In this document: piece after piece, positions 26,835 through 61,203 of the stretch
Numbering within the stretch: position 1 is the stretch's first letter
Layout of the letters: each line of letters opens with the position of its first letter
Virus record (IMG/VR): IMGVR_UViG_3300027708_000019
Source of the DNA: a virus
Length of the DNA stretch: 64,000 bases
Direction: 5' to 3' (one strand)
Made by a program: the position numbers and the translations under genes
The notes under the pieces: model-generated
The model's database searches: none
What the model saw: only the letters and a program-made list of their open reading frames with translations
Told to the model about the DNA's origin: nothing

Positions 26835-29336
26835 TTAAAAGAATTCTGCCAAGTCATTCTTTTCGTCAACAGACCAGCCAATCGAATTCATAATTGCGGA
26901 AAGTGGGTCAAGGAAAACTTTTTCAAATTGTTTTTCATAATCTACGTATTTATGTAGGTCTAACTGTTTGGGTAATGTTGTAGTAAACGCAATAACATCT
27001 TCACGAATAGTATTTGGTTCACGAAGATAGATAAATTTAATTCTATCGCCTTCACGAATCGGTTGGTATAATTCTGTTAACCCAAGTTCCTTAATGTGAT
27101 GATTGAACATCAACGCACCTCGAACATGAATCGGTGTTGATTTGCGATAAATCGAACCAGAATCAGAATACTCTTTCAAATTGTTTACGCTTCGTGGGAA
27201 TGCGATATCTTCAATCGGTAACCCATAAAACTCTTTTCTAAAATCAACAATAAATTTACGTAATTGAATCTCATCACCAGCAATCAAAATCTTCATTGAA
27301 TCTTTTAATTTACCACGAACTACCATAGGGGTTGACGACTTAACCATCTCAAGACCCATGATTTTCATTTTGGGTTCAGCATATTGAACACCCTCAGAAT
27401 TGTGTACGTTAAGAACATAACGCTTCTTCGCAGTCCACACACCCTTGTCGGCAATAACTTCACGCTTCATAATCATTTTCTGAGAGAATGCGTTTTGTCT
27501 TTGAGCCAAGTCAGAATAACACTTATCTATGTATAATTGAATTTTATCTTCACAAATCTTATCAATATATTCAACAACTTTTGTTTTATCTTTCTGTTGT
27601 TCTTTCGTGAATACTTTATCAACAAGTGGACCAAATCGTAGATATACAGAGTCAGTGTCAACAGCAATTACATAATCTTCTTTTTCAGTCTTGAGTAATT
27701 TGTTGAAGTATTCATTAAATTTCTTTTCCATCCAACGAATAGACAACTGACCACTCAACGTGATACCTTCAGACATGCGTTTGTCATAATATCGGAAATA
27801 TTGATTAGCCAACGCACCATAAGCTGAGTTCAACGCAATCTTAAGAGCCATCTGAAGATTATTCAATCGAGATATCTCATTTGTTAGAGATTCGTCTTTT
27901 GTGTTTTCATATTCTTGTTGAATCTTCAACATTTGTTTCTTTGCTTTACTGCGATTGATGTACATAGTTTCCATCAACTCAGGCAAGAAACCTTTGATGT
28001 CTTTACGGTAACACCAACCATTCGCAGTACAAGATAAATCTAAATCATGAAAACCACCAGTTTCTTCATGCTCAAGGAAATACCCAACACCACCAACGTG
28101 TTTATAACCTGCGTCCATTGTTTCAGGACTAATGTTATATTGCATAATCAAATGAGGATATAGACTGTTCAAGTCAAAAGAAACAACCCAGTTATGCATA
28201 CCAACAAGTGGTTCTTTAACATAAGCACCTTCAATAACAGAATCTTTATCATTGTGTTGTTTGTTTGGAATCACAATCTTTTTAGAACGCAAATGATTAT
28301 AGATGATTGTATCCCACATTCTAACTTGAGAGAACACATCCTCATAGTTTACCTTTGCGTTATACGCCATAACCATAGCCAATTCAATCAACTTCATCTT
28401 GTCTTCAAGTTTATCAACAAGCACAGTATCATGAATGTTATAATCAACAAACTTCTTCCATCCGTAGGTATAGAAATCTTTGAAAGTATCGTATTCAGAA
28501 TAATCTAATTTGTTTTCACCAAGTTCAACAAACGCAATGTGATCCAACTTGTATGATTCTTGCATTGAGTAAGTAAACTTTTTATACAAGTCAATATAAT
28601 CAAGAGCAGAAATACCTGCGATGTCATATGAGATTTCTTCAGATCCCTTAACATGAATCCTACGTTCGTTTATAATACCCCATGGGGATAGTTGCTTAGC
28701 ATGAGATTCGCCAAGCACATTCATAATCCTGCGTGTTAGATACGGAATATCAAAGAAGTTGATGTTCCAGCCTGTAACGATGTCGGGATAGTTTTCTTTC
28801 CAGAAGTCCAGGAAATTCATAAGAAGTGCTCGCTCACTTTCGCAGTGATGAAATCTTACTTCTCTATTTCCTGTGTATGGATTTTTACCAAAGGTATGAA
28901 TCTCTTTGGTTTTGTTGTCCATAAGTGTGATGAGAAGGATTTCCTCATTAGCAGTTTCTATGTTAGGAAATCCTTCCTCGGTTGTGGTTTCAATATCAAT
29001 AGAGAAACATTTGATTAGATCTTTATTGAATGTGATGTCAGTAGGATATGTATCTGAGATATACTGGTAAGCAAAGTTTGTGTTACCATATACCATGAAT
29101 CCTTGAACGTCTTTATAACGATCGATAAATTCTTTTGAGTCGCGAATAGATCCTGGACGAATTGAGTAAACAACCTCACCATCAAGTGTACGGAAAATTT
29201 CACCAGCATTTTTACTCTTAGATGATGCGTAGAGTGTTGGCTTGAAATCTATTTTGTCTGTATATTGTTTTCCGTTTTGATATCCACGTACACAAAGTTT
29301 GTTTCCCAGAGGGAACACATTTGTATAAAATTCCAT
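26835..29336 (-). CDS. gp43: Family B DNA polymerase
   Basis: DIET exonuclease, SFDLNSLYP, KIALNSAYG, DTDS, KKRY; uninterrupted. Confidence 0.97.
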   Translation of the reverse strand: MEFYTNVFPLGNKLCVRGYQNGKQYTDKIDFKPTLYASSKSKNAGEIFRTLDGEVVYSIRPGSIRDSKEFIDRYKDVQGFMVYGNTNFAYQYISDTYPTDITFNKDLIKCFSIDIETTTEEGFPNIETANEEILLITLMDNKTKEIHTFGKNPYTGNREVRFHHCESERALLMNFLDFWKENYPDIVTGWNINFFDIPYLTRRIMNVLGESHAKQLSPWGIINERRIHVKGSEEISYDIAGISALDYIDLYKKFTYSMQESYKLDHIAFVELGENKLDYSEYDTFKDFYTYGWKKFVDYNIHDTVLVDKLEDKMKLIELAMVMAYNAKVNYEDVFSQVRMWDTIIYNHLRSKKIVIPNKQHNDKDSVIEGAYVKEPLVGMHNWVVSFDLNSLYPHLIMQYNISPETMDAGYKHVGGVGYFLEHEETGGFHDLDLSCTANGWCYRKDIKGFLPELMETMYINRSKAKKQMLKIQQEYENTKDESLTNEISRLNNLQMALKIALNSAYGALANQYFRYYDKRMSEGITLSGQLSIRWMEKKFNEYFNKLLKTEKEDYVIAVDTDSVYLRFGPLVDKVFTKEQQKDKTKVVEYIDKICEDKIQLYIDKCYSDLAQRQNAFSQKMIMKREVIADKGVWTAKKRYVLNVHNSEGVQYAEPKMKIMGLEMVKSSTPMVVRGKLKDSMKILIAGDEIQLRKFIVDFRKEFYGLPIEDIAFPRSVNNLKEYSDSGSIYRKSTPIHVRGALMFNHHIKELGLTELYQPIREGDRIKFIYLREPNTIREDVIAFTTTLPKQLDLHKYVDYEKQFEKVFLDPLSAIMNSIGWSVDEKNDLAEFF

Positions 29337-29339
29337 TAA

Positions 29340-29909
29340 TTATTTTCCATGTACTAGTTGCATGATGTCATATGCGCAGTCATGCACAGGATGATGTTTA
29401 ATTACATTTGATCCCTTGTCGAAAGGAATTGTTAAATCACAGTAACCATTTTTTGCTGTTGTTGTTAAACAGTCTAATGCTGTTCTTACATCTCGCCATT
29501 GATTATATGGTGCGAGTAACTCTTGACCTGTGACTTTACACAAACTGTCAATCGCCATTTGATCTAGTGAACCACGTGCCCAAAATGTATTTTTACCTGG
29601 ATTTCCAATGTAATCACGAAGTCGATTGATGCCTTCGATCGCTTCTAGGTCGTCTTCCTCACTCGGAATGAAACTTACCTTGCGAACGTAGTCATGTTGA
29701 TTTGACCACCACTCAATGGTAGATTTATCAATCGTACGTTTATACTTAGCTACTTGTTCCTGCACATTAAACTTTACAAACAGTGCTTCGGAGATATAGT
29801 CATCGTAGGTTTGTGTTTTATCGTTTGGGTCAAATGCGATAATCGCAGCAGACAATACAACAGTCGTAGACTCTACACCGAGAGTCTCAATATCAAACAT
29901 ATACATCAT
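29340..29909 (-). CDS. dexA: DEDDh 3'-5' exonuclease (DexA-like)
   Basis: FDIETLG, WARG..D, RDVRT, HHPVHDCAYD. Confidence 0.8.
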   Translation of the reverse strand: MMYMFDIETLGVESTTVVLSAAIIAFDPNDKTQTYDDYISEALFVKFNVQEQVAKYKRTIDKSTIEWWSNQHDYVRKVSFIPSEEDDLEAIEGINRLRDYIGNPGKNTFWARGSLDQMAIDSLCKVTGQELLAPYNQWRDVRTALDCLTTTAKNGYCDLTIPFDKGSNVIKHHPVHDCAYDIMQLVHGK

Positions 29910-30073
29910 TTTTCGTTATCCTTATCAATTCGAATTATTCGCACTTCATCATATAGAGTGCCACGTTTCAACATATCTTCCGCTACTTGATCTGCTTCAA
30001 GCCAGTTGTCGCAATGTTCTGTTGACATTACCAAACCCTGACGATATGCGACTACTTTAAATTGTGGTACCAT
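29906..30073 (-). CDS. Small hypothetical protein (55 aa)
   Basis: Hand-translated MVPQFKVVAYRQG...; overlaps both neighbours. Confidence 0.5.
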   Translation of the reverse strand: MVPQFKVVAYRQGLVMSTEHCDNWLEADQVAEDMLKRGTLYDEVRIIRIDKDNEK

Positions 30074-30318
30074 TACAAAATCATCCTTTGTAGTTTCAAC
30101 TTCGCTTCGTGTACTGATTTGAACAAATCTCCGTTGATTTTAATGTTGCGATTATGCTTGATTGCGACAGTAACATTACCAGCAGTGAGTGTGGTAGTGT
30201 CAGTTGTCTTTGTTTTTGATACTGTGTTACCAGTAGAGAAGAATAGCGTGTCCATGAGTTCGTCAGAAGCCATTTTACGCAAAAAGTGGTTATTAGCCAT
30301 ACAATACCCCATAATCAA
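30073..30318 (-). CDS. Hypothetical protein
   Basis: Follows consensus promoter at 30332-30360; exact start uncertain. Confidence 0.5.
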   Translation of the reverse strand: MIMGYCMANNHFLRKMASDELMDTLFFSTGNTVSKTKTTDTTTLTAGNVTVAIKHNRNIKINGDLFKSVHEAKLKLQRMIL

Positions 30319-30331
30319 GAATTATAGTATA

Positions 30332-30360
30332 ATTATACCTCGAAACCTATTAAATGTCAA
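30332..30360 (-). promoter_or_regulatory. Sigma70 promoter for the dexA-gp43 block
   Basis: TTGACA-17-TATAAT perfect. Confidence 0.8.
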
Positions 30361-30530
30361 GGGTTTTTCCGAAAAAGACCAAATTGGAGCGATTTTGGAC
30401 GATTTTTGTGGTTTGGGAGGGGTAAAGGTCGGTCCAGACAGAAAAATCGTCCCTGTAGGGTCTAAAATCGGTCTACAGGGACGTTTTTTTGGGTTTTTAG
30501 ACCCTATGAGGACCCCTATGAGGACGCTTT

Positions 30531-30743
30531 TTAGACGTTTCCAAGGGTCAAATACTCTAAAAACATAACACTTTCTTGATATGAACCAAATATTCTAGTA
30601 AAATAGTCGCCTGTTACCTCATTATAACCAACAATCATAATCTGCTCATCAAGGTATACAGACGCTTTGATGAACCAATCACCTCTCATCGCAGTTGCGT
30701 AAGATATAATACCTTTACCGATGGTGACTTTTTTTATACTCAT
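30531..30743 (-). CDS. Hypothetical protein
   Basis: Start trimmed to MSIKKV; GATAAATA late-like motif upstream. Confidence 0.5.
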   Translation of the reverse strand: MSIKKVTIGKGIISYATAMRGDWFIKASVYLDEQIMIVGYNEVTGDYFTRIFGSYQESVMFLEYLTLGNV

Positions 30744-30765
30744 GCATTTATTTATCAGATGCATG

Positions 30766-30785
30766 AAGGGAGCCGAAGCTCCCTT
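30766..30785. terminator. Hairpin AAGGGAGC-UUCG-GCUCCCUU downstream of the hsp20 block
   Basis: Perfect 8-bp stem, UUCG loop on minus strand; T-tract is clearer on plus strand. Confidence 0.6.
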
Positions 30786-30960
30786 GTTTTTATTTCACTG
30801 GTTTTGGTTCAGGTGACTTTTCATTCACCCAATCCCAATCATCATCTGTCATTGGGATCCAGTTGTTCATCTTCCAATACCTCTTGTTATTGCATCCGCA
30901 CGTGCTTTGCGTGCTTCACCAATTGATTCAAGAATTGATTTGAAAAATGTACCAATTAGT

Positions 30961-31458
30961 TTAAAGAGTTTCAGTGATCGCATCTTGCTCTTCCTCTGTT
31001 AGAAGTTGTTTCTTAGATGCTTTCGCGTCTTTCACTTCAATCTTTTTTGGCTTTTTGTGTTCAGGAATAACACGCTCTAAGAAAATCTTTAGCATGCCAT
31101 TGAACATTTCCGCATCCTTAATTTCTGTTTGATCATTAAGTGCGAATGTACGAGTAAACGCACGATTAGCAATACCTTTGAAGACATAGTCAGAACCATC
31201 TTCTGCAGTAGTACCCTTAACAATCAACTTGTCTCCATCAATCTCAATCTCGATGTCTTGCTTAGCAAAGCCAGCAACAGCGATCTCAATGACATACTTG
31301 TTCTCGTCTGTCTTCTTGATGTTGTAAGGTGGGTAGTTTGGGATATTTTTTGTTAGATCATCATGTAGTTTTGCTAGTTGATTGAATTGCTCATCAAAAC
31401 CAACAAACACTCTATCAAAGTCTTGACCGAAAATGGTCGGAATGAATTTATGTACCAT
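30961..31458 (-). CDS. hsp20: Small heat-shock protein (IbpA-like)
   Basis: NYPPYNI, IEIAVAGF, GIANRAFTRTF, NGMLKI, IPEHKKP; start at MVHKF with SD AGGAG. Confidence 0.95.
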   Translation of the reverse strand: MVHKFIPTIFGQDFDRVFVGFDEQFNQLAKLHDDLTKNIPNYPPYNIKKTDENKYVIEIAVAGFAKQDIEIEIDGDKLIVKGTTAEDGSDYVFKGIANRAFTRTFALNDQTEIKDAEMFNGMLKIFLERVIPEHKKPKKIEVKDAKASKKQLLTEEEQDAITETL

Positions 31459-31460
31459 AA

Positions 31461-31523
31461 GTTTTCTCCTATTAAGCGAGTTAGAAAAACCCTCAAGCAA
31501 TCCCCGAAAGCGATTGAAGAGAG
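31461..31523 (-). ncRNA. ROSE-like RNA thermometer in hsp20 5' UTR
   Basis: CUCGCU-UAAU-AGGAG pairs anti-SD with SD around a bulged G, closed by GUUUU/AAAAC; preceded by another hairpin. Confidence 0.65.
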
Positions 31524-31534
31524 CCATATTAAAT

Positions 31535-31716
31535 ACTGGTTACGATTCCAGCGATATCGTGACGCCATATCCGCTTTATGCGATTCGTTACTTAGCGGTC
31601 CTAAGGTGAATCCAAATTAGTGGGGGTTCTGGGCTGGTTTCCCCCAACCAGTTTATCCTAGAGTATTACGTCGCGATAGGACTAGGTTCCATCTTTGACG
31701 TTCCCATCCCTGAGAA
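31535..31716 (-). ncRNA. Structured RNA with tandem pseudoknots between pqqA and hsp20
   Basis: Hand-found pairings, listed in findings. Confidence 0.5.
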
Positions 31717-31720
31717 TCGT

Positions 31721-31792
31721 TTAGCGATTGGCTACGTACATTGTAATTTCAAAGCCAAAACGCATTTCCGTTGCAGTAGGTTTAGTCCACAT
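31721..31792 (-). CDS. pqqA: Pyrroloquinoline quinone precursor peptide PqqA
   Basis: Below ORF-track cutoff. Translation [23 protein letters not shown]; W-x-K-P, RFGFE and ExxxY core; SD GGAG 8 nt upstream. Confidence 0.93.
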
Positions 31793-31890
31793 GTTTTCAT
31801 CTCCGTATATGTCCGATTTGGACAATAATACTTATTGCCCGAAGGCAAATAAATGGCTAATGAAAATCATTAAAATCTACTAACTGTTTT

Positions 31891-31898
31891 TATTTATA
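31891..31898 (-). promoter_or_regulatory. T4-type late promoter upstream of pqqA
   Basis: TATAAATA on minus strand. Confidence 0.5.
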
Positions 31899-32063
31899 TT
31901 ATCAAACTTCATCAAAGCAAGTTGCCTTGCTAAAAAAAGTCTAAATTTTACATGTGCACTAAGATCTGTATCTGTATCTTCTTGAACAATTTTTGGACGA
32001 CGATAGGGTGATTGAATATCTAGTTCATCAAACCAATCGTCATCATCGTCATCAATTTCTAAA

Positions 32064-32363
32064 TTACTTAGAAGTTGCTGTTGCTTTCTTTGTGTCCTTG
32101 GTAGGTGTAGCTTGACTTTTAGTGGCTGCTTTAGCAGCGTCCTTTTCTTTCTTGGCTTCTACCTTTGCCTTAGCATTTGCAGCTGCTTTCTCTTGAACAG
32201 AAGTTGGAGCATGTTTCGCTTCATCTTTCTTAGCAACTGGTTTCTTTGTCTCAGCTTTTTTGGCTGGGGCAGTAGCTGCTGGTTTTGGTTCAGGTGATTT
32301 GGCTGGTTGAGCAAATGATACTGTTGCTACTGAAAGTGCTACGATTGCGATAAGATTTTTCAT
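32064..32363 (-). CDS. Secreted Lys/Ala/Pro-rich protein
   Basis: Signal peptide MKNLIAIVALSVATVSFA followed by low-complexity basic sequence. Confidence 0.7.
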   Translation of the reverse strand: MKNLIAIVALSVATVSFAQPAKSPEPKPAATAPAKKAETKKPVAKKDEAKHAPTSVQEKAAANAKAKVEAKKEKDAAKAATKSQATPTKDTKKATATSK

Positions 32364-32548
32364 GATTGCGTTTCCTCATTAGTTGAAGTTTGGATTTCCT
32401 GCGCTTCTTGGATCGCTTTCCATTGTGGTACAGCTTGATTGCGTAACTTCTCAATTAAGCCACTTACTTTGATGTATGGTTGTTCGCCAAGCGCAGATAA
32501 CACAAGATCAACCTCATCAACATTAAGATTCAATTTAATAATACTCAT
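32360..32548 (-). CDS. Hypothetical protein
   Basis: VLSALGEQPY..V..LIEKLR motif; ATGA-coupled to next gene. Confidence 0.6.
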   Translation of the reverse strand: MSIIKLNLNVDEVDLVLSALGEQPYIKVSGLIEKLRNQAVPQWKAIQEAQEIQTSTNEETQS

Positions 32549-32573
32549 AATTTCCTACTCTCCATAGTAATAT

Positions 32574-32600
32574 AACGCTACAGCATTATAATTGGTTGAC
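32574..32600 (-). promoter_or_regulatory. ECF-sigma-like promoter GTCAAC-N17-CGTT
   Basis: Same motif and spacing recurs at 43341-43367. Confidence 0.45.
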
Positions 32601-33023
32601 TTACTTCTTAACTTTTTTCCCAATATTATACTTGGGTACAAGTTCCCATTCGTCTTTCTCTTTGAAAGACAATACTTTAATTTGTGACAATGATGCTTGT
32701 GGTTCAGCTTCTGCTGGTTTTATAATTTTCAACAGTCCCCAATCTTGAAGCAACACAGCAACTGTGTTCCTACGTTCAATATCATTGTTTGTTAAATTTG
32801 ATTCTTTTCCATCCAAAGCAAATAGTTCTTTGAAATGCACCAAGAAATATCTACCCTGTTTGTGTAGAATATGACATGACTGAAACAACTTATGCTCTTT
32901 ACGTGATGCGATCCCAATACGTGTCAATGTTTCCTTAATCTTAAGGAAATTGTCTGGTTCTGGGAGTGTCACTTCGAGCATACTGTCTGATGTCCAATCA
33001 TAATAAACAGTTTCAACACTCAT
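32601..33023 (-). CDS. regA: Translational repressor RegA
   Basis: FLKIKETLTRIGIA, QSCHILHKQGRY..VHFKELF. Confidence 0.95.
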   Translation of the reverse strand: MSVETVYYDWTSDSMLEVTLPEPDNFLKIKETLTRIGIASRKEHKLFQSCHILHKQGRYFLVHFKELFALDGKESNLTNNDIERRNTVAVLLQDWGLLKIIKPAEAEPQASLSQIKVLSFKEKDEWELVPKYNIGKKVKK

Positions 33024-33403
33024 TTTCTTCCACCTTTATCCATTTTTCGTTTTATCAGTTGTAACTGTTCTTCTGTCAAAATGTCGAGAACAGTCATTGC
33101 TTTACGCTTACTATAATCATAGTATTGCATTACCATTTCCAAGTCATCTGTTTTTGGGACTTTCTCAGCCCATTTACTGAATCGTTTTTTCTTGGTAATT
33201 GTATTTAGCAAATACGAAAATTGCCAATCTTTCGGAATGGCACGATGGATATTCATCTGATTGGCTTGAAGTACTGTATCTGGAAAGTACGCCAAACCTC
33301 TGTTGATGATGAAAGAGTTATAGTCTTTTTCAGCTTGTGGTTCTTTTATTAGATCCTTGTTTTTGTTGTCGCAGATCGCATTAATAAAATCAAATGGGGT
33401 CAT
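33020..33403 (-). CDS. gp62: Clamp loader small subunit
   Basis: PFDFIN, YNSFIINRGL, KKRFSKW; synteny 45-44-62-regA. Confidence 0.9.
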   Translation of the reverse strand: MTPFDFINAICDNKNKDLIKEPQAEKDYNSFIINRGLAYFPDTVLQANQMNIHRAIPKDWQFSYLLNTITKKKRFSKWAEKVPKTDDLEMVMQYYDYSKRKAMTVLDILTEEQLQLIKRKMDKGGRK

Positions 33404-33410
33404 GATAACC

Positions 33411-34352
33411 TCACTTGAATTTACAGTTTGCCATAATCTCTGTCAAAGCAGCAACATTATTAACTTCAATGTCAGCAACGAATGCTGCTTTATACTGATA
33501 ATCAGCAAGTATCAACACAAGCTGAGGAACAGATTGTCCCTCAACAATATCTGCAGCAGTGTCATAAAGTCTTCGGAATAATACCGAAGTTTCAATGTCG
33601 TTGTTTCTAGCAACCCACTTACGTGCTTCAATAAAGTTTTTCTCCTTGAGATAACCAACCAACTCTTTCATGGTTTCATCGGACATGTTGGCCAAAATGC
33701 CAGCATCAACTTTACCACTAACACTATATCTTTGAAGTTCGTTAAGAACTCTACGGAAGTCTGGGAAAAATGTTTCTACAACTTTAGCAACAACTTTAGA
33801 ATCAGATTCTACACCTTCAGATGTTAGAACATCATTAACCCTGCGGAAAAATGATGCTGCGATCTTTGGTTTATCTTTGCTTTCAATCTTAAAGTCTACG
33901 ACTGCACATCGACTGTGGAGTGGGGCAATGATTCTGTTTTTGAAGTTACATGTAAGGATGAATCGACAGTTGTTTGAAAACTCTTCGATAAAAGCACGCA
34001 AGGCTGCTTGTGTGTCTGGCGTAAGATAGTCGGCTTCGTCAAGGATGACGACTTTTGCACCTTCTGCGGTGATACTAACAGACGAGGCAAATTGTTTGAT
34101 TTTTGTACGTAAGACATCGATTCCTCTTTCTTCAGATCCGTTGATAAACAAATAATCAGCACCCAACTCATTACACAAAGCACGTGCCACTGTAGTTTTA
34201 CCTACACCAGCACTGCCTGAGAAAATAAAATTGGGCAACTGTCCCTCAGCAATATATTGCTTAAATGTATCTTTGATTTGTTGCGGTAGGATGCAATCAT
34301 CAATAACTTGTGGGCGATACTTCTCGCACCAGAGAAACTCTTCACGACTCAT
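33411..34352 (-). CDS. gp44: Clamp loader AAA+ subunit
   Basis: EKYRP, GVGKTT, ILDEAD, LHSRC. Confidence 0.95.
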   Translation of the reverse strand: MSREEFLWCEKYRPQVIDDCILPQQIKDTFKQYIAEGQLPNFIFSGSAGVGKTTVARALCNELGADYLFINGSEERGIDVLRTKIKQFASSVSITAEGAKVVILDEADYLTPDTQAALRAFIEEFSNNCRFILTCNFKNRIIAPLHSRCAVVDFKIESKDKPKIAASFFRRVNDVLTSEGVESDSKVVAKVVETFFPDFRRVLNELQRYSVSGKVDAGILANMSDETMKELVGYLKEKNFIEARKWVARNNDIETSVLFRRLYDTAADIVEGQSVPQLVLILADYQYKAAFVADIEVNNVAALTEIMANCKFK

Positions 34353-34370
34353 AATATAATATCCTTAAAA

Positions 34371-35030
34371 TTATTCAGATGTTGAATCAGATTCAACTGC
34401 TACATAATATGATAGACTTGTTTTTGCAGATTTAAAACGACAAATTTTCATCTTAGCAATAGAAACATCATATGCTCCTGGAAGCATTTTGAAGTTTTCA
34501 ATTTTAAGGTTTGCTGTAAAGTTCTTATCAGTTGTACCAACCTCAACTTCAAATTTATTTGTTAGAGGATTTTTCTTATCCACAACAACAGCATTTACTT
34601 TGCCATTTGAACCGATGAAAGATACATCAGATACTTTAAGAACACCAGCAGCACGGATCAAGTTTGATAGATCGCCAGCTGAGAGTGAGAAATTGATTTC
34701 CGCTTCTGGGAAATTGATTGCCTTGGCAGGTGTCTTCAAAGTAGTTTCTTCCGCAGCACGGTAACTAATTTGATTCTTACCTTCTTTGATTGTTACAGTG
34801 TTTCCACTGAAAGATAGATCTGGGTCATTGAACAATGACAATGTGCCAAGAAATTCATTGATATCATAGATACCAAAATTTTGTGGGAATGTTTCAGGAA
34901 CAATTACTTCCCCAAACACAGTTTTGTTTTCAGTCATCGAATAGATGCTGTTACCTTCACGAAGCAACAGGTTTAAATTGATAGAAGCAAAGTTCTTCAA
35001 TACCTCTTGCGTTTCTTTACTAATCTTCAT
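34371..35030 (-). CDS. gp45: Sliding clamp
   Basis: LKNFASIN, FGIYDINEFL, Y(Y)VAVE; consensus promoter at 35072-35100. Confidence 0.92.
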   Translation of the reverse strand: MKISKETQEVLKNFASINLNLLLREGNSIYSMTENKTVFGEVIVPETFPQNFGIYDINEFLGTLSLFNDPDLSFSGNTVTIKEGKNQISYRAAEETTLKTPAKAINFPEAEINFSLSAGDLSNLIRAAGVLKVSDVSFIGSNGKVNAVVVDKKNPLTNKFEVEVGTTDKNFTANLKIENFKMLPGAYDVSIAKMKICRFKSAKTSLSYYVAVESDSTSE

Positions 35031-37123: not shown

Positions 37124-38278
37124 TTAAATGTCAAGCACTTTTTCTGTTTCTTCGGAAACAGGTACTTGCTCTGTTACAACAGCAGTTGGTTCCGAAGAAA
37201 CTTTATCGAACAAGTCCATAAAAGCATCTTTGGTGTGACTGTCAAATCGATTGATAGCCAACTGTACTGCCTTACGCTTGTCCTTATAGATCGCAAAGTT
37301 TTTCACAATGTGAACCAAACGACGAGTCGTAATTGTTTCGTCAACACCACCATCCTCGAAGGTGCGACGAATTGCATCAGCCCATTTAATTAGAACCGAA
37401 GTAAAATCACCATCTAAACAGTCAAGAGACTTCATCAGATTGGTAACGATTTTCGCTTCAACCTTTTGACCAGGATATTCCTGCTCGAAGACAATAGCGA
37501 ACCGCTCGAGGAATGCTTCATTCAAGACGTTGGTGCCGATATAGCGACCATCGTCACTGCCTTTACCTTTGGTGTTAGCAGTTGCGATTACATTAAAACC
37601 CTTCTGTGGGTATACGATTTCGTTCTTGGCTTTGATGTAAAGTGGCTTACCTTCAAGAACACCCTGCAAACACATAAGCAAGTTTGCGCCACCAGCGTCA
37701 ATCTCATCAATCAAGATTGGGATACCCTTACGCATCGCAATCACAACTGGACCATCTTCAATAACCACGTTACCTTCAACCAAAGTCTTAGATGCGATCA
37801 ACTTATCTTCGTCATCAGTTGCGTTCAAGTTAACACGGATAAGAGGTGTCTTTTGTTTTGCACAAATCTGTTCAACCATAGTTGACTTACCATTCCCAGT
37901 CGGACCTGTGATATAGATCGGGTGAAACAATTTAGATTTTACAATCGCTTCAACATCAGTGTGGTTACCCCAAGCAACATAATTGCTATCAACGATTGGA
38001 GCAGCAACTGTGGCTTCAGTAATATATGTAGGTTTGTTCACAGCATTCTCACCGATTTCTTGTTCAACAACTTTACGGACTGTGTTACCACCAGCAATTG
38101 CGTAAAGACCACGACCAACTTTATTGGTCATCAGCCAGTTAGGATACTTAGTAGTACCCAAGGCATTCATCGTGTCAACAATTTGAGCACGACTAACAGT
38201 CCCAGTGTCAACAACATCGGGAAACATTTCAAACAATTTAGACTCAAAAACATTTTGTTCCATCACAAACTCCATCAT
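37124..38278 (-). CDS. MoxR/CobS-like AAA+ ATPase
   Basis: GPTGNGKS, LIDEID, TANTKG.G...GRY.GTNVLNEAFLERF. Confidence 0.85.
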   Translation of the reverse strand: MMEFVMEQNVFESKLFEMFPDVVDTGTVSRAQIVDTMNALGTTKYPNWLMTNKVGRGLYAIAGGNTVRKVVEQEIGENAVNKPTYITEATVAAPIVDSNYVAWGNHTDVEAIVKSKLFHPIYITGPTGNGKSTMVEQICAKQKTPLIRVNLNATDDEDKLIASKTLVEGNVVIEDGPVVIAMRKGIPILIDEIDAGGANLLMCLQGVLEGKPLYIKAKNEIVYPQKGFNVIATANTKGKGSDDGRYIGTNVLNEAFLERFAIVFEQEYPGQKVEAKIVTNLMKSLDCLDGDFTSVLIKWADAIRRTFEDGGVDETITTRRLVHIVKNFAIYKDKRKAVQLAINRFDSHTKDAFMDLFDKVSSEPTAVVTEQVPVSEETEKVLDI

Positions 38279-38840: not shown

Positions 38841-38933
38841 ATTATACTCTAAACCCGAATAAATGTCAAGCACTTTATTGGGATAACCCTACGTCTTGTA
38901 GGGTTATTTTTCCCATTTAAAATCAATGACTTA
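38841..38933 (-). promoter_or_regulatory. Sigma70 promoter + ATAACCCTAC-N5-GTAGGGTTAT palindrome + IHF-like site
   Basis: -10 at 38841, -35 at 38864, perfect 10-bp IR at 38883-38907, AATCAATGACTTA at 38921-38933. Confidence 0.85.
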
Positions 38934-41204
38934 CGCAACCGCAGCCACAAACCGATTCAGAAGGATTCGGCTGGTCTTCTTTGCCCCCAAATATTTGCCG
39001 AATTTCTTAGCAATTTGGTTCGAAGTCAGATTAGCCATACCCTCATCGAGTTCGGTTTCATCAACTTTGATTGAGTTCGGCAACAAGAACATTTCTGTAT
39101 GACCAGTCATGGTGATTGGGAAGAACATCTCATCGTTGAAACCCTTACGGATTTTGATAGCCAAGTCATTTTCTTGGTAGCTGTTGGTAGCAATACCATA
39201 GCGACCAATTGTGTACATAAGTTCACGACGACCTTTACCAACAACATGATAACCAACAACGCTGGCATCATAACGATCTTGAATCATTTTACAGATAATG
39301 TTGGTACAACTATGAGCAGCGTAGGTATACGTTTTCTTTGAAACTTTGTCAGTCAACAGAGTAACAATCTTTGTACGTTTACGTTCACCATCTTCATAAG
39401 AATAGTCCATTGTGTTGATCCACTCTGAACCTTTGGATACATCATCAGTAAAGTAAGAAGTAGCACCAGTGGCATCACCATCGGTCAACTTGATGACAGT
39501 CAATTTCTCAACTTGGTTAACAGTTTTGAATTCACCGACATAGTTATACAACCACATCATACCTTCGTTGAGCGGAGTGCCATTGAGTTCGTACTTACCA
39601 CTGAATTTTACATTCTGGTCAATATACTCAGACTCATGACAATAAGGTGAGCGGAAACGACCAGTCGTACTCATTATGTATAGATTTTTACAAGCAGTAT
39701 TGAATTCACTGTTTGTCATCTTATGGCTGAAGAATTCAATCATCTGAAAATCATGAGTGAAAGTCAGAGTATTTGGCTGAGACATCACTGTATGATCATG
39801 CGCACGTTCTTCAGCAGTTTTCTCACAGTTATCGCTGAAGGCAAATACTTCAAATGGAATCTTTAGACGATAGCAGAATGTAACCAAAGAGATCAACTGT
39901 TTTACAGTTTCCTCAAGGTAATCTCCCATCGAACCAGACCAGTCGATAGTAAACACCATACCATGTTTCTTACCATCCTTAGTGATTTGAATTTGTTTGA
40001 ACAAGTCCTCACGGATTTTGTAAGAAGCAAGTTTACGAACATCAAGAACACCAGTCTTAGCAACGCTGGTACGTTTGTAGTCAGACGCAGCTTTCTTCAT
40101 CTCAAATTCTTTGATGAGATAGTTTACGATACGACTAGTATCAACACGGAATTGATCATAGTTCTTTTCTGAAGTTGTAAACATCTCATAGAATCGTGCC
40201 TGTGGATTCTTAAACTGTTTCAACATCATAGTTGTCTCAGCAAGATAAGTTTTGTAAGGAATACGGATGTGTTTCGTTTTGCTTGTATCAGGCAACGACA
40301 CTTGAATGTACTTGGTTGAAGTATCGGCAGACTCAGCCAGTTTCTCAGCGAATGCGTTTTGAGTAATACTCTCAGTAGCATCATCAGGCAACGATGGCTC
40401 GTCGGATTGTTTCACCTCATCAGGTGCTTGGTTACCCTTTACCTTAACTTCTTCCTGTTCTTCATCAGGTGTTTCGTCAGTTTCCTCAGGATCACTGTAG
40501 TCAACATCGGATGCCCAGTCGTCATCGTCAAAAGATTCATCTTGCTGTAGTTCAAGTTGTTCTTCCAACAAATCTTTAGCAGCATCTTCTGCTTCCTCTT
40601 GTTTCATTTTCTTGTACTCAGAATCATTTTCACGTTCTTTGTGCTTACGCTCATTTTCACGTTTGATGAATTCATAGATTGCGTTACCAAGAGAAACCAC
40701 ATTGTCGATGGACTCAAGTTTCTCAGCACGTTCGACAAGATATTTCTCAGCGACAGAGAATCGCACACCAGATTTGAAACCAACTTTGAACCAAAGATTG
40801 ATACGATCAATCAAACTCAATTGAGTTACATCGCGACGACTCACATTAAAGAAATCCAATTCATTCAACTCAGCGTAACCCAAGTTGAAAGTTTTACGCA
40901 GTCCTGGATACTTACGCTTCATCAATTTCTCGATGCGAGCATCTTCTAAAATGTTAAGAATAGCAAAGGGAACAGAGGATTTTTGTGCTTTCTCAGCAAA
41001 CAGTTTTTCATCGGTATAGATAGCATGACCAACTTCGTGGGCTTTCAGCATTTCCTCAATTTGAGGTGTCATGTTTTGCCACATTGGCAATGTTAAAATT
41101 CGATTCCTAACATCAAACGAAGCAGTCTTAACAGGTGCTCGGTTGATGAGTAAGTTTTCCTGAGCCAACAGGCGAGTGGATAAGTCGTTCGTAATTTCAG
41201 TCAT
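38931..41204 (-). CDS. CobT-like protein: HExxH peptidase-like domain + acidic linker + vWA domain
   Basis: AHEVGHA, NILEDARIE, IDWSGSM (MIDAS), GTPLNE, LTDGD. Confidence 0.8.
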   Translation of the reverse strand: MTEITNDLSTRLLAQENLLINRAPVKTASFDVRNRILTLPMWQNMTPQIEEMLKAHEVGHAIYTDEKLFAEKAQKSSVPFAILNILEDARIEKLMKRKYPGLRKTFNLGYAELNELDFFNVSRRDVTQLSLIDRINLWFKVGFKSGVRFSVAEKYLVERAEKLESIDNVVSLGNAIYEFIKRENERKHKERENDSEYKKMKQEEAEDAAKDLLEEQLELQQDESFDDDDWASDVDYSDPEETDETPDEEQEEVKVKGNQAPDEVKQSDEPSLPDDATESITQNAFAEKLAESADTSTKYIQVSLPDTSKTKHIRIPYKTYLAETTMMLKQFKNPQARFYEMFTTSEKNYDQFRVDTSRIVNYLIKEFEMKKAASDYKRTSVAKTGVLDVRKLASYKIREDLFKQIQITKDGKKHGMVFTIDWSGSMGDYLEETVKQLISLVTFCYRLKIPFEVFAFSDNCEKTAEERAHDHTVMSQPNTLTFTHDFQMIEFFSHKMTNSEFNTACKNLYIMSTTGRFRSPYCHESEYIDQNVKFSGKYELNGTPLNEGMMWLYNYVGEFKTVNQVEKLTVIKLTDGDATGATSYFTDDVSKGSEWINTMDYSYEDGERKRTKIVTLLTDKVSKKTYTYAAHSCTNIICKMIQDRYDASVVGYHVVGKGRRELMYTIGRYGIATNSYQENDLAIKIRKGFNDEMFFPITMTGHTEMFLLPNSIKVDETELDEGMANLTSNQIAKKFGKYLGAKKTSRILLNRFVAAVA

Positions 41205-41227
41205 CGTTTTCTCCAATTTATAGAGTA

Positions 41228-58613: not shown

Positions 58614-58621
58614 TATTTATA
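58614..58621 (-). promoter_or_regulatory. T4 late promoter
   Basis: TATAAATA upstream of gp3. Confidence 0.75.
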
Positions 58622-61140: not shown

Positions 61141-61203
61141 TCTAGTCTCCTGTTTTTAAGTAGGTTATGTCCGATTAGTTTCGATAAAGTCTATTTATAA
61201 TTT

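Follow-up and report, generated by a model that had tools for sequence, protein, structure and literature searches.

Does a 23-codon open reading frame on the minus strand of a freshwater phage genome encode PqqA, the precursor peptide of the cofactor PQQ, and, if so, what would the peptide alone do for a virus? PqqA is consumed at one peptide per PQQ, and its glutamate and tyrosine are cross-linked by PqqE together with PqqD. The stretch of DNA analysed here (the window) comprises 64,000 nucleotides of IMG/VR record IMGVR_UViG_3300027708_000019, in which the initial annotation had proposed a minus-strand frame of 23 amino acids with a GGAG Shine–Dalgarno sequence and a TATAAATA motif ~100 nt upstream; all three can be read directly where they were placed. 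The coding sequence (31721–31792, minus strand) consists of 23 codons and a stop, and the GGAG ribosome-binding site (31801–31804, minus strand) lies 8 nt before the ATG at 31792, with (A)GGAG(A) at an equal distance in every T4-like cassette that we compared. The translated peptide matches both PqqA profile models, as had been predicted: TIGR02107 scores 41.8 bits (cut-off 20, E = 6.5e-11, model positions 1–21 of 21) and the Pfam PqqA model, PF08042, scores 40.4 bits (cut-off 21.1, E = 2.7e-10, model positions 1–19 of 19), in each case about twice the curated cut-off and over the full length of the model. Residues that match the family are W2, K4, P5, E9, R11, G13, E15, T17 and Y19, which include the Glu-X3-Tyr pair (E15-I-T-M-Y19) whose Glu15 and Tyr19 are the sources of PQQ. 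The segment is a genuine pqqA, with a match far beyond chance, and it lies at 31.7 kb of the 64-kb window, away from the contig edge. A longer, TTG-initiated reading in the same frame (34 amino acids) is not supported, because its upstream codons differ among relatives.

The genome around this gene is that of a freshwater T4-like myophage. Minus-strand genes in the window encode a gp43 polymerase, an exonuclease, hsp20, regA, the gp62/gp44 clamp loader, gp46/47-like nuclease subunits, UvsW, the gp23 capsid protein and a scaffold protein, and T4-like core genes flank pqqA on either side for tens of kilobases. The G+C content ranges from 35 to 43%, the closest cultured polymerases are those of cyanomyophage (~55% identity), and a megablast search of window positions 29000–35000 against GenBank phages returned no match. 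The sequencing runs that contain this stretch are freshwater and lake metagenomes. A 102.5-kb IMG/VR record that is 99% identical to the window has the same pqqA, and independent records and sequencing runs place it at the same position. What we observe is a host-type metabolic gene within a bona fide viral genome, free of host contamination. The earlier statement that pqqB–E are missing also held, in that tblastn searches of the 64-kb window with PqqB, PqqC, PqqD and PqqE were empty; a methanol/ethanol-type PQQ dehydrogenase (TIGR03075) was likewise not found in the 102.5-kb near-identical record, itself 62% complete. Having no PQQ enzymes of its own, the phage must rely on enzymes from another genome. 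Elsewhere in the window, an AAA_5/CbbQ_C ATPase of 384 amino acids (37124–38278, minus strand) adjoins a 761-amino-acid protein without a Pfam match (38931–41216, minus strand), and the two may resemble the cobS/cobT-like pair of marine T4-like phages.

Within this genome, pqqA lies between regA, the translational repressor gene that forms the upstream boundary of a variable slot (32601–33023, minus strand; phrog_242, E = 5.1e-60), and hsp20 immediately downstream (30961–31527, minus strand; phrog_432, E = 1.3e-42), matches that bear out the flanking genes named in the initial annotation. When the region was compared by blastn and MAFFT with the five closest relatives, which are cassette-free (L391, L392, L396, L398 and L399; regA 91–93% identical), homology ended at ~31884 and restarted at 31715, two points that in each relative are 0–6 nt apart. 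This places pqqA in a cleanly bounded cassette of 168 nt (31716–31883, minus strand) that holds a leader, the ribosome-binding site, the open reading frame and 5 further nt. No transposase, repeats or target-site duplication were found at its junctions. The slot between regA and hsp20 holds different cargo in different relatives. A search for a recent or close donor of the cassette was negative: beyond the phage population to which the window belongs, the best matches cover only the open reading frame, at 84–93% identity.

At least 23 further T4-like viral contigs show the synteny that had been anticipated, with pqqA again between regA and hsp20; their replication proteins are only 35–83% identical to those of the window. 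For an unbiased estimate of prevalence, we picked 80 loci by regA similarity alone, 72 of which had enough downstream sequence. The gene is present in 21 of these 72, always 109–812 nt after regA and on the same strand, and its occurrence is patchy with respect to relatedness: it is found in 2 of 12 loci with regA identity of at least 85% (both from the window's own phage population), in 19 of 35 loci at 75–85% identity and in 0 of 25 at 60–75%. In two near-complete relatives, of 174 kb and 147 kb, a search with a positive control detected no PqqA at any position. Thus, with the five closest relatives lacking the cassette, these two genomes lacking any PqqA and only 21 of the 72 regA-selected loci having the gene, pqqA is dispensable.

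Upstream of the cassette, the T4-type late-promoter motif TATAAATA (31891–31898, minus strand) begins 106 nt before the ATG. The motif proposed in the initial annotation is therefore present, but it is conserved in relatives without pqqA and so is ancestral to the hsp20 unit, pre-dating the insertion of the pqqA cassette behind it. Its placement, rather than its number, carries the weight: the window has three copies versus 4.2 expected, no excess over chance, whereas TATAAATA occurs in 12 of 42 distinct T4-like pqqA leaders, always 88–107 nt before the ATG, compared with 1 of 42 for the reverse-complement control. The three copies in the window (31891–31898, 58614–58621 and 61192–61199, all minus strand) all lie on the coding strand directly upstream of genes, namely pqqA/hsp20, the gene after gp23 and a gp22-like scaffold gene, a placement consistent with T4-type late promoters. 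A scan for sigma-70 promoters found none near pqqA. The region is present in RNA libraries: four lake metatranscriptome studies yielded assembled contigs that are identical to it, although such contigs can stem from contaminating DNA and reveal neither strand, level nor transcript ends. Gaps in RNA-contig cover, for example at gp44, were given no weight. One 1076-nt contig from an RNA library spans 30796–31871, taking in hsp20, the intergenic stretch, pqqA and its leader up to the palindrome described below. Transcription of pqqA is probably late and common with hsp20, with a start predicted a few bases beyond 31891.

The 5′ end of the cassette is marked by a palindrome, TAATGATTTTCATTAG (31857–31872, minus strand), the same element that stands upstream of orphan pqqA genes in hosts. 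Among bacterial pqqA copies, ATGA-N(2–5)-TCAT occurs 40–200 nt upstream in 65 of 126, versus 3 of 126 in the control, and 51 of 121 viral copies are preceded by a looser motif, ATG(A/G)TTTT, versus 5 of 118 in the control. Unlike this looser motif, the perfect host-type palindrome was discarded as a general viral feature, being present in only 3–4 of 121 viral leaders. In the orphan pqqA genes of Methylophilaceae, the common palindrome is typically TCATGAAAATCATGA or TAATGAAAATCATGA and could be a regulator binding site or the 5′ hairpin of the pqqA transcript. Following the palindrome, the cassette leader contains two candidate hairpins, TTGCC-TTCG-GGCAA (31835–31848, minus strand), present in the minimum-free-energy fold, and GTCC-AAATC-GGAC (31811–31823, minus strand), for which locus L017 has GTAG...CTAC at the same place, one compensatory change by eye. 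The fold of the whole cassette has z = −1.75.

Between pqqA and hsp20 lies a structured non-coding stretch, the hsp20 leader (31528–31715, minus strand), which is found in relatives with and without pqqA, including L253, L254, L288, L289, L291, L309, L310, L321, L392 and L398. Searches against Rfam found no family around pqqA or in eight relatives, only sub-threshold matches at chance level. The stretch starts with a TCCC-loop-GGGA hairpin and GGGAA, followed by a CTGGTT...AACCAG stem whose loop, GGGGG in the window, can pair with a downstream CCCCC. Both the stem (GTAGTT/AACTAC) and the loop-tail pairing (GGAGG/CCTCC, GGTAGG/CTACC, GGCAG/CTGCC) change together in relatives, which suggests an H-type pseudoknot. 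Just upstream of hsp20 in relative L291 (6764–6823, minus strand), a weak match to ROSE_3, an RNA thermometer, that falls below threshold (24.7 bits, E = 0.7) is a hint only that such a thermometer might act on phage hsp20. On the other side of the gene, an open frame of ~85 codons (~31880–32135, minus strand) contains no potential start codon (ATG, GTG or TTG) before its final 11 codons, continues in the +1 frame from the end of a 99-amino-acid open reading frame (32064–32363; a signal peptide and a Lys/Ala-rich region) and ends ...KFRLFLARQLALMKFDNINKNS, its last codons including the TATAAATA motif. Because three of the cassette-free relatives (L391, L392 and L398) share this two-frame layout with conserved amino acids, the frame may be reached by a programmed +1 frameshift or from a non-canonical start.

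Which bacterium would supply the missing enzymes? We scanned a species-representative genome collection for pqqA genes restricted to the EMR(F/Y)GFE(V/I)TMY core, which yielded at least 120 loci. Among the 80 records listed, 50 are named as Methylophilus, Methylotenera, Methylovorus, Methylobacillus, Methylopumilus or Methylophilaceae, and the rest comprise 24 with general betaproteobacterial or proteobacterial labels and 6 from other taxa. This predominance of Methylophilaceae fits the earlier guess of a PQQ-producing betaproteobacterial host, possibly a methylotroph, as does a tblastn search of 50,697 GenBank phage records with the peptide, which returned phages of Methylophilales/Methylophilaceae, one uncultured spring phage and one bacterial contig; bar the spring phage, the true phage matches are all Methylophilales/Methylophilaceae phages. 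The commonest viral peptide (29 copies) and the commonest bacterial peptide (52 copies) are the same residue for residue. The window's exact peptide was absent from all bacterial loci sampled and is 3–4 positions removed from Methylopumilus copies, and its substitutions, T6, I16, A21 and R23, are each seen in bacterial PqqA variants. The host is most likely a Methylophilaceae methylotroph, an assignment at the level of the family only. The G+C content of Ca. Methylopumilus/LD28 would, we presume, suit the 35–43% of the window.

The pqqA genes of these hosts have a distinctive arrangement. Among the matches listed, 34 of 120 bacterial loci with the EMRFGFE(V/I)TMY subtype lie beside pqqB–E and 86 of 120 are orphans. 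In the Methylopumilus family, all 41 sampled genomes have pqqA, in 1–12 copies each (median 4), and genomes of only 1.3–1.6 Mb hold 3–7 copies. A methylotrophic strain used for PQQ production has five pqqA genes, and those with the highest expression include an orphan copy (PMC9851590). Together, this universal and multiple occurrence and the high expression of an orphan copy indicate that pqqA dosage matters to hosts. The window gene resembles the Methylophilaceae orphans in its 23-residue length, EMRFGFE(V/I)TMY core, stand-alone position, own ribosome-binding site and upstream palindrome, (T/C)(A/C)ATGA-N-TCAT; it differs in its phage location, in the T4-type late promoter that precedes it and in the distance from palindrome to ATG, which is ~65–80 nt in the window and mostly 100–160 nt in the orphans. 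Many of the orphan copies have a downstream terminator hairpin. Operon-linked PqqA, as in the pqqABCDE operons of Klebsiella, Methylorubrum and Acinetobacter, belongs to the same HMM family and has the same Glu-X3-Tyr pair, but adjoins pqqB–E, which the window copy lacks alongside; such linkage is not strictly defining, since the 86 orphan bacterial loci are unlinked as well.

The gene is widespread among viruses. Viral and bacterial copies were collected with a degenerate DNA pattern that covers residues W2 to Y19, and scans of IMG/VR returned at least 120 contigs with Glu at residue 9 and at least 120 more with Asp at that residue. All of the IMG/VR matches listed are intact open reading frames of 22–36 amino acids, nearly all of 23–25, and nearly all start with ATG and end four codons beyond Tyr19, features that lie outside the search pattern. 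In the fetched loci among the matches listed, pqqB–E were nearby in 0 of 240 viral cases versus 34 of 120 bacterial ones. When the first 120 viral loci were typed by shared proteins, using best-reference assignment and Louvain communities, they fell into at least six phage types (window-type T4-like, Melnitz-like, Venkman/Manatee-like, MEP301-like, MEP401-like and P19250A-like) plus ~15 unassigned loci. Single-linkage clustering was abandoned because it merged the loci into one component owing to mosaicism. The Methylophilales phage isolates returned all have pqqA (Venkman, MEP301, MEP401/402, P19250A and four Melnitz genomes), and in every isolate genome inspected the frame is unannotated, lying in an annotation gap or beneath a wrong-strand call. 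In Melnitz (MZ577097.1, 76140–76205), for example, the pqqA frame directly precedes a tRNA-Leu gene and is overlapped on the opposite strand by an annotated hypothetical protein (locus tag _152) that is probably a miscall. One apparent phage match, ‘Acinetobacter phage MD-2021a’ (CAKLQF020000010.1), was rejected; it holds a 5′-nucleotidase gene, ppk and a full pqqABCDE operon and looks like a bacterial chromosome.

The pattern of variation among viral copies points to selection on the peptide. The viral collection contains 104 distinct 72-nt genes but only 48 peptides, and entropy by codon position is 7.6, 5.2 and 20.7, the third position being three to four times as variable as the first and second. 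The pN/pS ratio is 0.17 for viral copies versus 0.16 for bacterial ones, the viral value being biased downwards by the nine residues fixed by the search pattern; Glu15 and Tyr19, both forced by that pattern, are invariant across the 48 peptide variants. Even with the bias that pattern-based sampling brings to pN/pS, phage pqqA appears to be maintained by purifying selection.

We think it probable that this genuine pqqA of a lytic, T4-like myophage of freshwater lakes supplies the consumable PQQ precursor to the PqqB–E enzymes of its host; we infer translation, processing and benefit from the established biochemistry of PqqA and from the amplification of pqqA in hosts. The 168-nt cassette, directly behind the T4-type late promoter, would be transcribed together with the hsp20 leader, and the 23-residue product would be passed to host PqqD, PqqE, PqqB and PqqC, which would cross-link Glu15 to Tyr19 and release PQQ. 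PqqA is the sole consumed component of this pathway, and its supply from the host would cease when the phage turns off transcription in the host, so a phage copy would keep PQQ synthesis running and thereby sustain PQQ-dependent methanol dehydrogenase and respiration during infection. As counterpoints, the gene is dispensable, and PQQ is a recycled cofactor, so fresh PQQ may not be needed over a single round of infection. There is an analogy, not a homology, with the psbA gene (D1 protein) of cyanophages, in that the phage encodes just the fast-consumed part of the host's energy-harvesting system and leaves all other parts to the host, although the protein and pathway are unrelated. The benefit of cyanophage psbA has been shown by experiment, whereas that of phage pqqA is a proposal.

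Other explanations must be weighed against supply of the precursor. The gene might be a neutral passenger that brings no benefit here, the pqqA cassette being a small, recombination-prone or mobile module that moves among host chromosomes and phages. The clean 168-nt indel relative to the nearest relatives, the patchy distribution in T4-like relatives, the many dispersed orphan copies in hosts, the upstream palindrome common to hosts and phages, and a regA–hsp20 slot with differing cargo all speak for this reading. Nevertheless, we judge it unlikely, as a neutral passenger would hardly show variation mostly at third codon positions, with a pN/pS of 0.17 over 104 distinct viral genes, or keep its start, stop and ribosome-binding site intact in all or nearly all of at least 240 viral copies; moreover, at least six phage types retain it, all methylotroph-linked where hosts are known, and the junctions lack the transposase, repeats or target-site duplication of a mobile element. 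A chance short frame, or host DNA misassembled into a viral contig, is effectively excluded. Lists of frames of only 23 codons are full of noise, but HMM E-values of ~1e-10 are not expected from noise, and the recurrence of the gene at this position across independent assemblies and sequencing runs, with T4-like core genes on either side for tens of kilobases, argues against misassembly.

It is also conceivable, at a probability well below that of a neutral passenger, that the phage peptide works against the host pathway or as a regulator, either as a decoy for PqqD/PqqE or as a signal through a pqq regulatory circuit. The window peptide does differ at 3–4 positions from every host copy sampled, and the phage does not encode the PQQ enzymes. 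Against this, Glu15, Tyr19 and the whole leader are retained, a single sequence is the commonest among viral and bacterial peptides alike, and T6, I16, A21 and R23 all have precedents in bacterial variants. Slightly less probable still is that selection acts on the RNA, in which case the cassette would be a small RNA or would lead or stabilise the hsp20 mRNA, and its open reading frame would be incidental. The cassette lies within the hsp20 leader behind the hsp20 promoter, it contains three small hairpins, and one RNA-library contig covers both pqqA and hsp20; yet leaders vary widely among cassettes while the peptide is conserved, the fold is unexceptional (z = −1.75), and the same frame recurs in unrelated phages without hsp20. 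We therefore continue to favor supply of the precursor peptide to the host pathway.

More broadly, and as a tentative extension that we hold to be possible but rather improbable, the whole unit of palindrome, structured leader, ribosome-binding site and 23-codon frame (168 nt here) may be a self-contained cassette that has moved time and again between the chromosomes of methylotrophs and many phages unrelated to one another, landing in plastic slots such as that between regA and hsp20. The shared palindrome would then be its regulatory or recombination site, and pqqA would act as a dosage device and, at the same time, offer a sequence marker for predicting that an uncultured phage infects PQQ-dependent methylotrophs.

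Viral pqqA is not new as an idea. Coutinho et al. (2020, Microbiome 8:163; PMC7678222) reported PqqA in T4-like phages of Lake Baikal with predicted Methylophilaceae hosts (population VP_266) and interpreted it as we do, as an auxiliary metabolic gene with a boost to PQQ and methanol oxidation as its effect; viral pqqA also appears in a list of auxiliary genes in a 2026 paper. Like the window, the VP_266 phages are freshwater, low-G+C and T4-like and have the precursor peptide gene alone of the PQQ pathway; by contrast, Baikal populations also encode methanol dehydrogenase, which was not found in the 102.5-kb near-identical record, a comparison made between descriptions rather than sequences. 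The cassette structure, the regA–hsp20 slot and the patchy distribution are described here and are absent from PMC7678222. New for this locus are the boundary of the 168-nt cassette, the placement behind a late promoter, the unbiased prevalence in relatives and the metatranscriptome matches, and our results mainly confirm and refine a known phenomenon. The gene goes unmentioned in the publications describing Melnitz and MEP401/402, and we found no description in the literature of its presence in all Methylophilales phage isolates.

Methylophilaceae, including LD28, OM43 and Methylotenera, are major methanol consumers in lakes and coastal seas and obtain energy via PQQ-dependent dehydrogenases. 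If the phage gene feeds the sole consumable step of PQQ synthesis, phages could tune the flow of carbon through these bacteria. Phage pqqA would rank among the smallest auxiliary metabolic genes known, one that routine gene callers miss, and its 23-codon motif may help to flag uncultured phages of methylotrophs. Cultured host–phage pairs exist, OM43 strain H5P1 with Venkman or Melnitz and LD28 strain IMCC19250 with P19250A, which makes the hypothesis directly testable. Finally, viral contigs L272, L280, L308, L324, L334 and others of the set L251–L370 have orphan pqqA genes of other subtypes, among them MWKKPAFIDMRLGLEVTLYISNR, which we take to resemble the enterobacterial type, and several unplaced types, such as MIWEKPTYIDMRYGFEVTMYINMR; these other-subtype copies raise the possibility that phage pqqA may not be limited to phages of Methylophilaceae.
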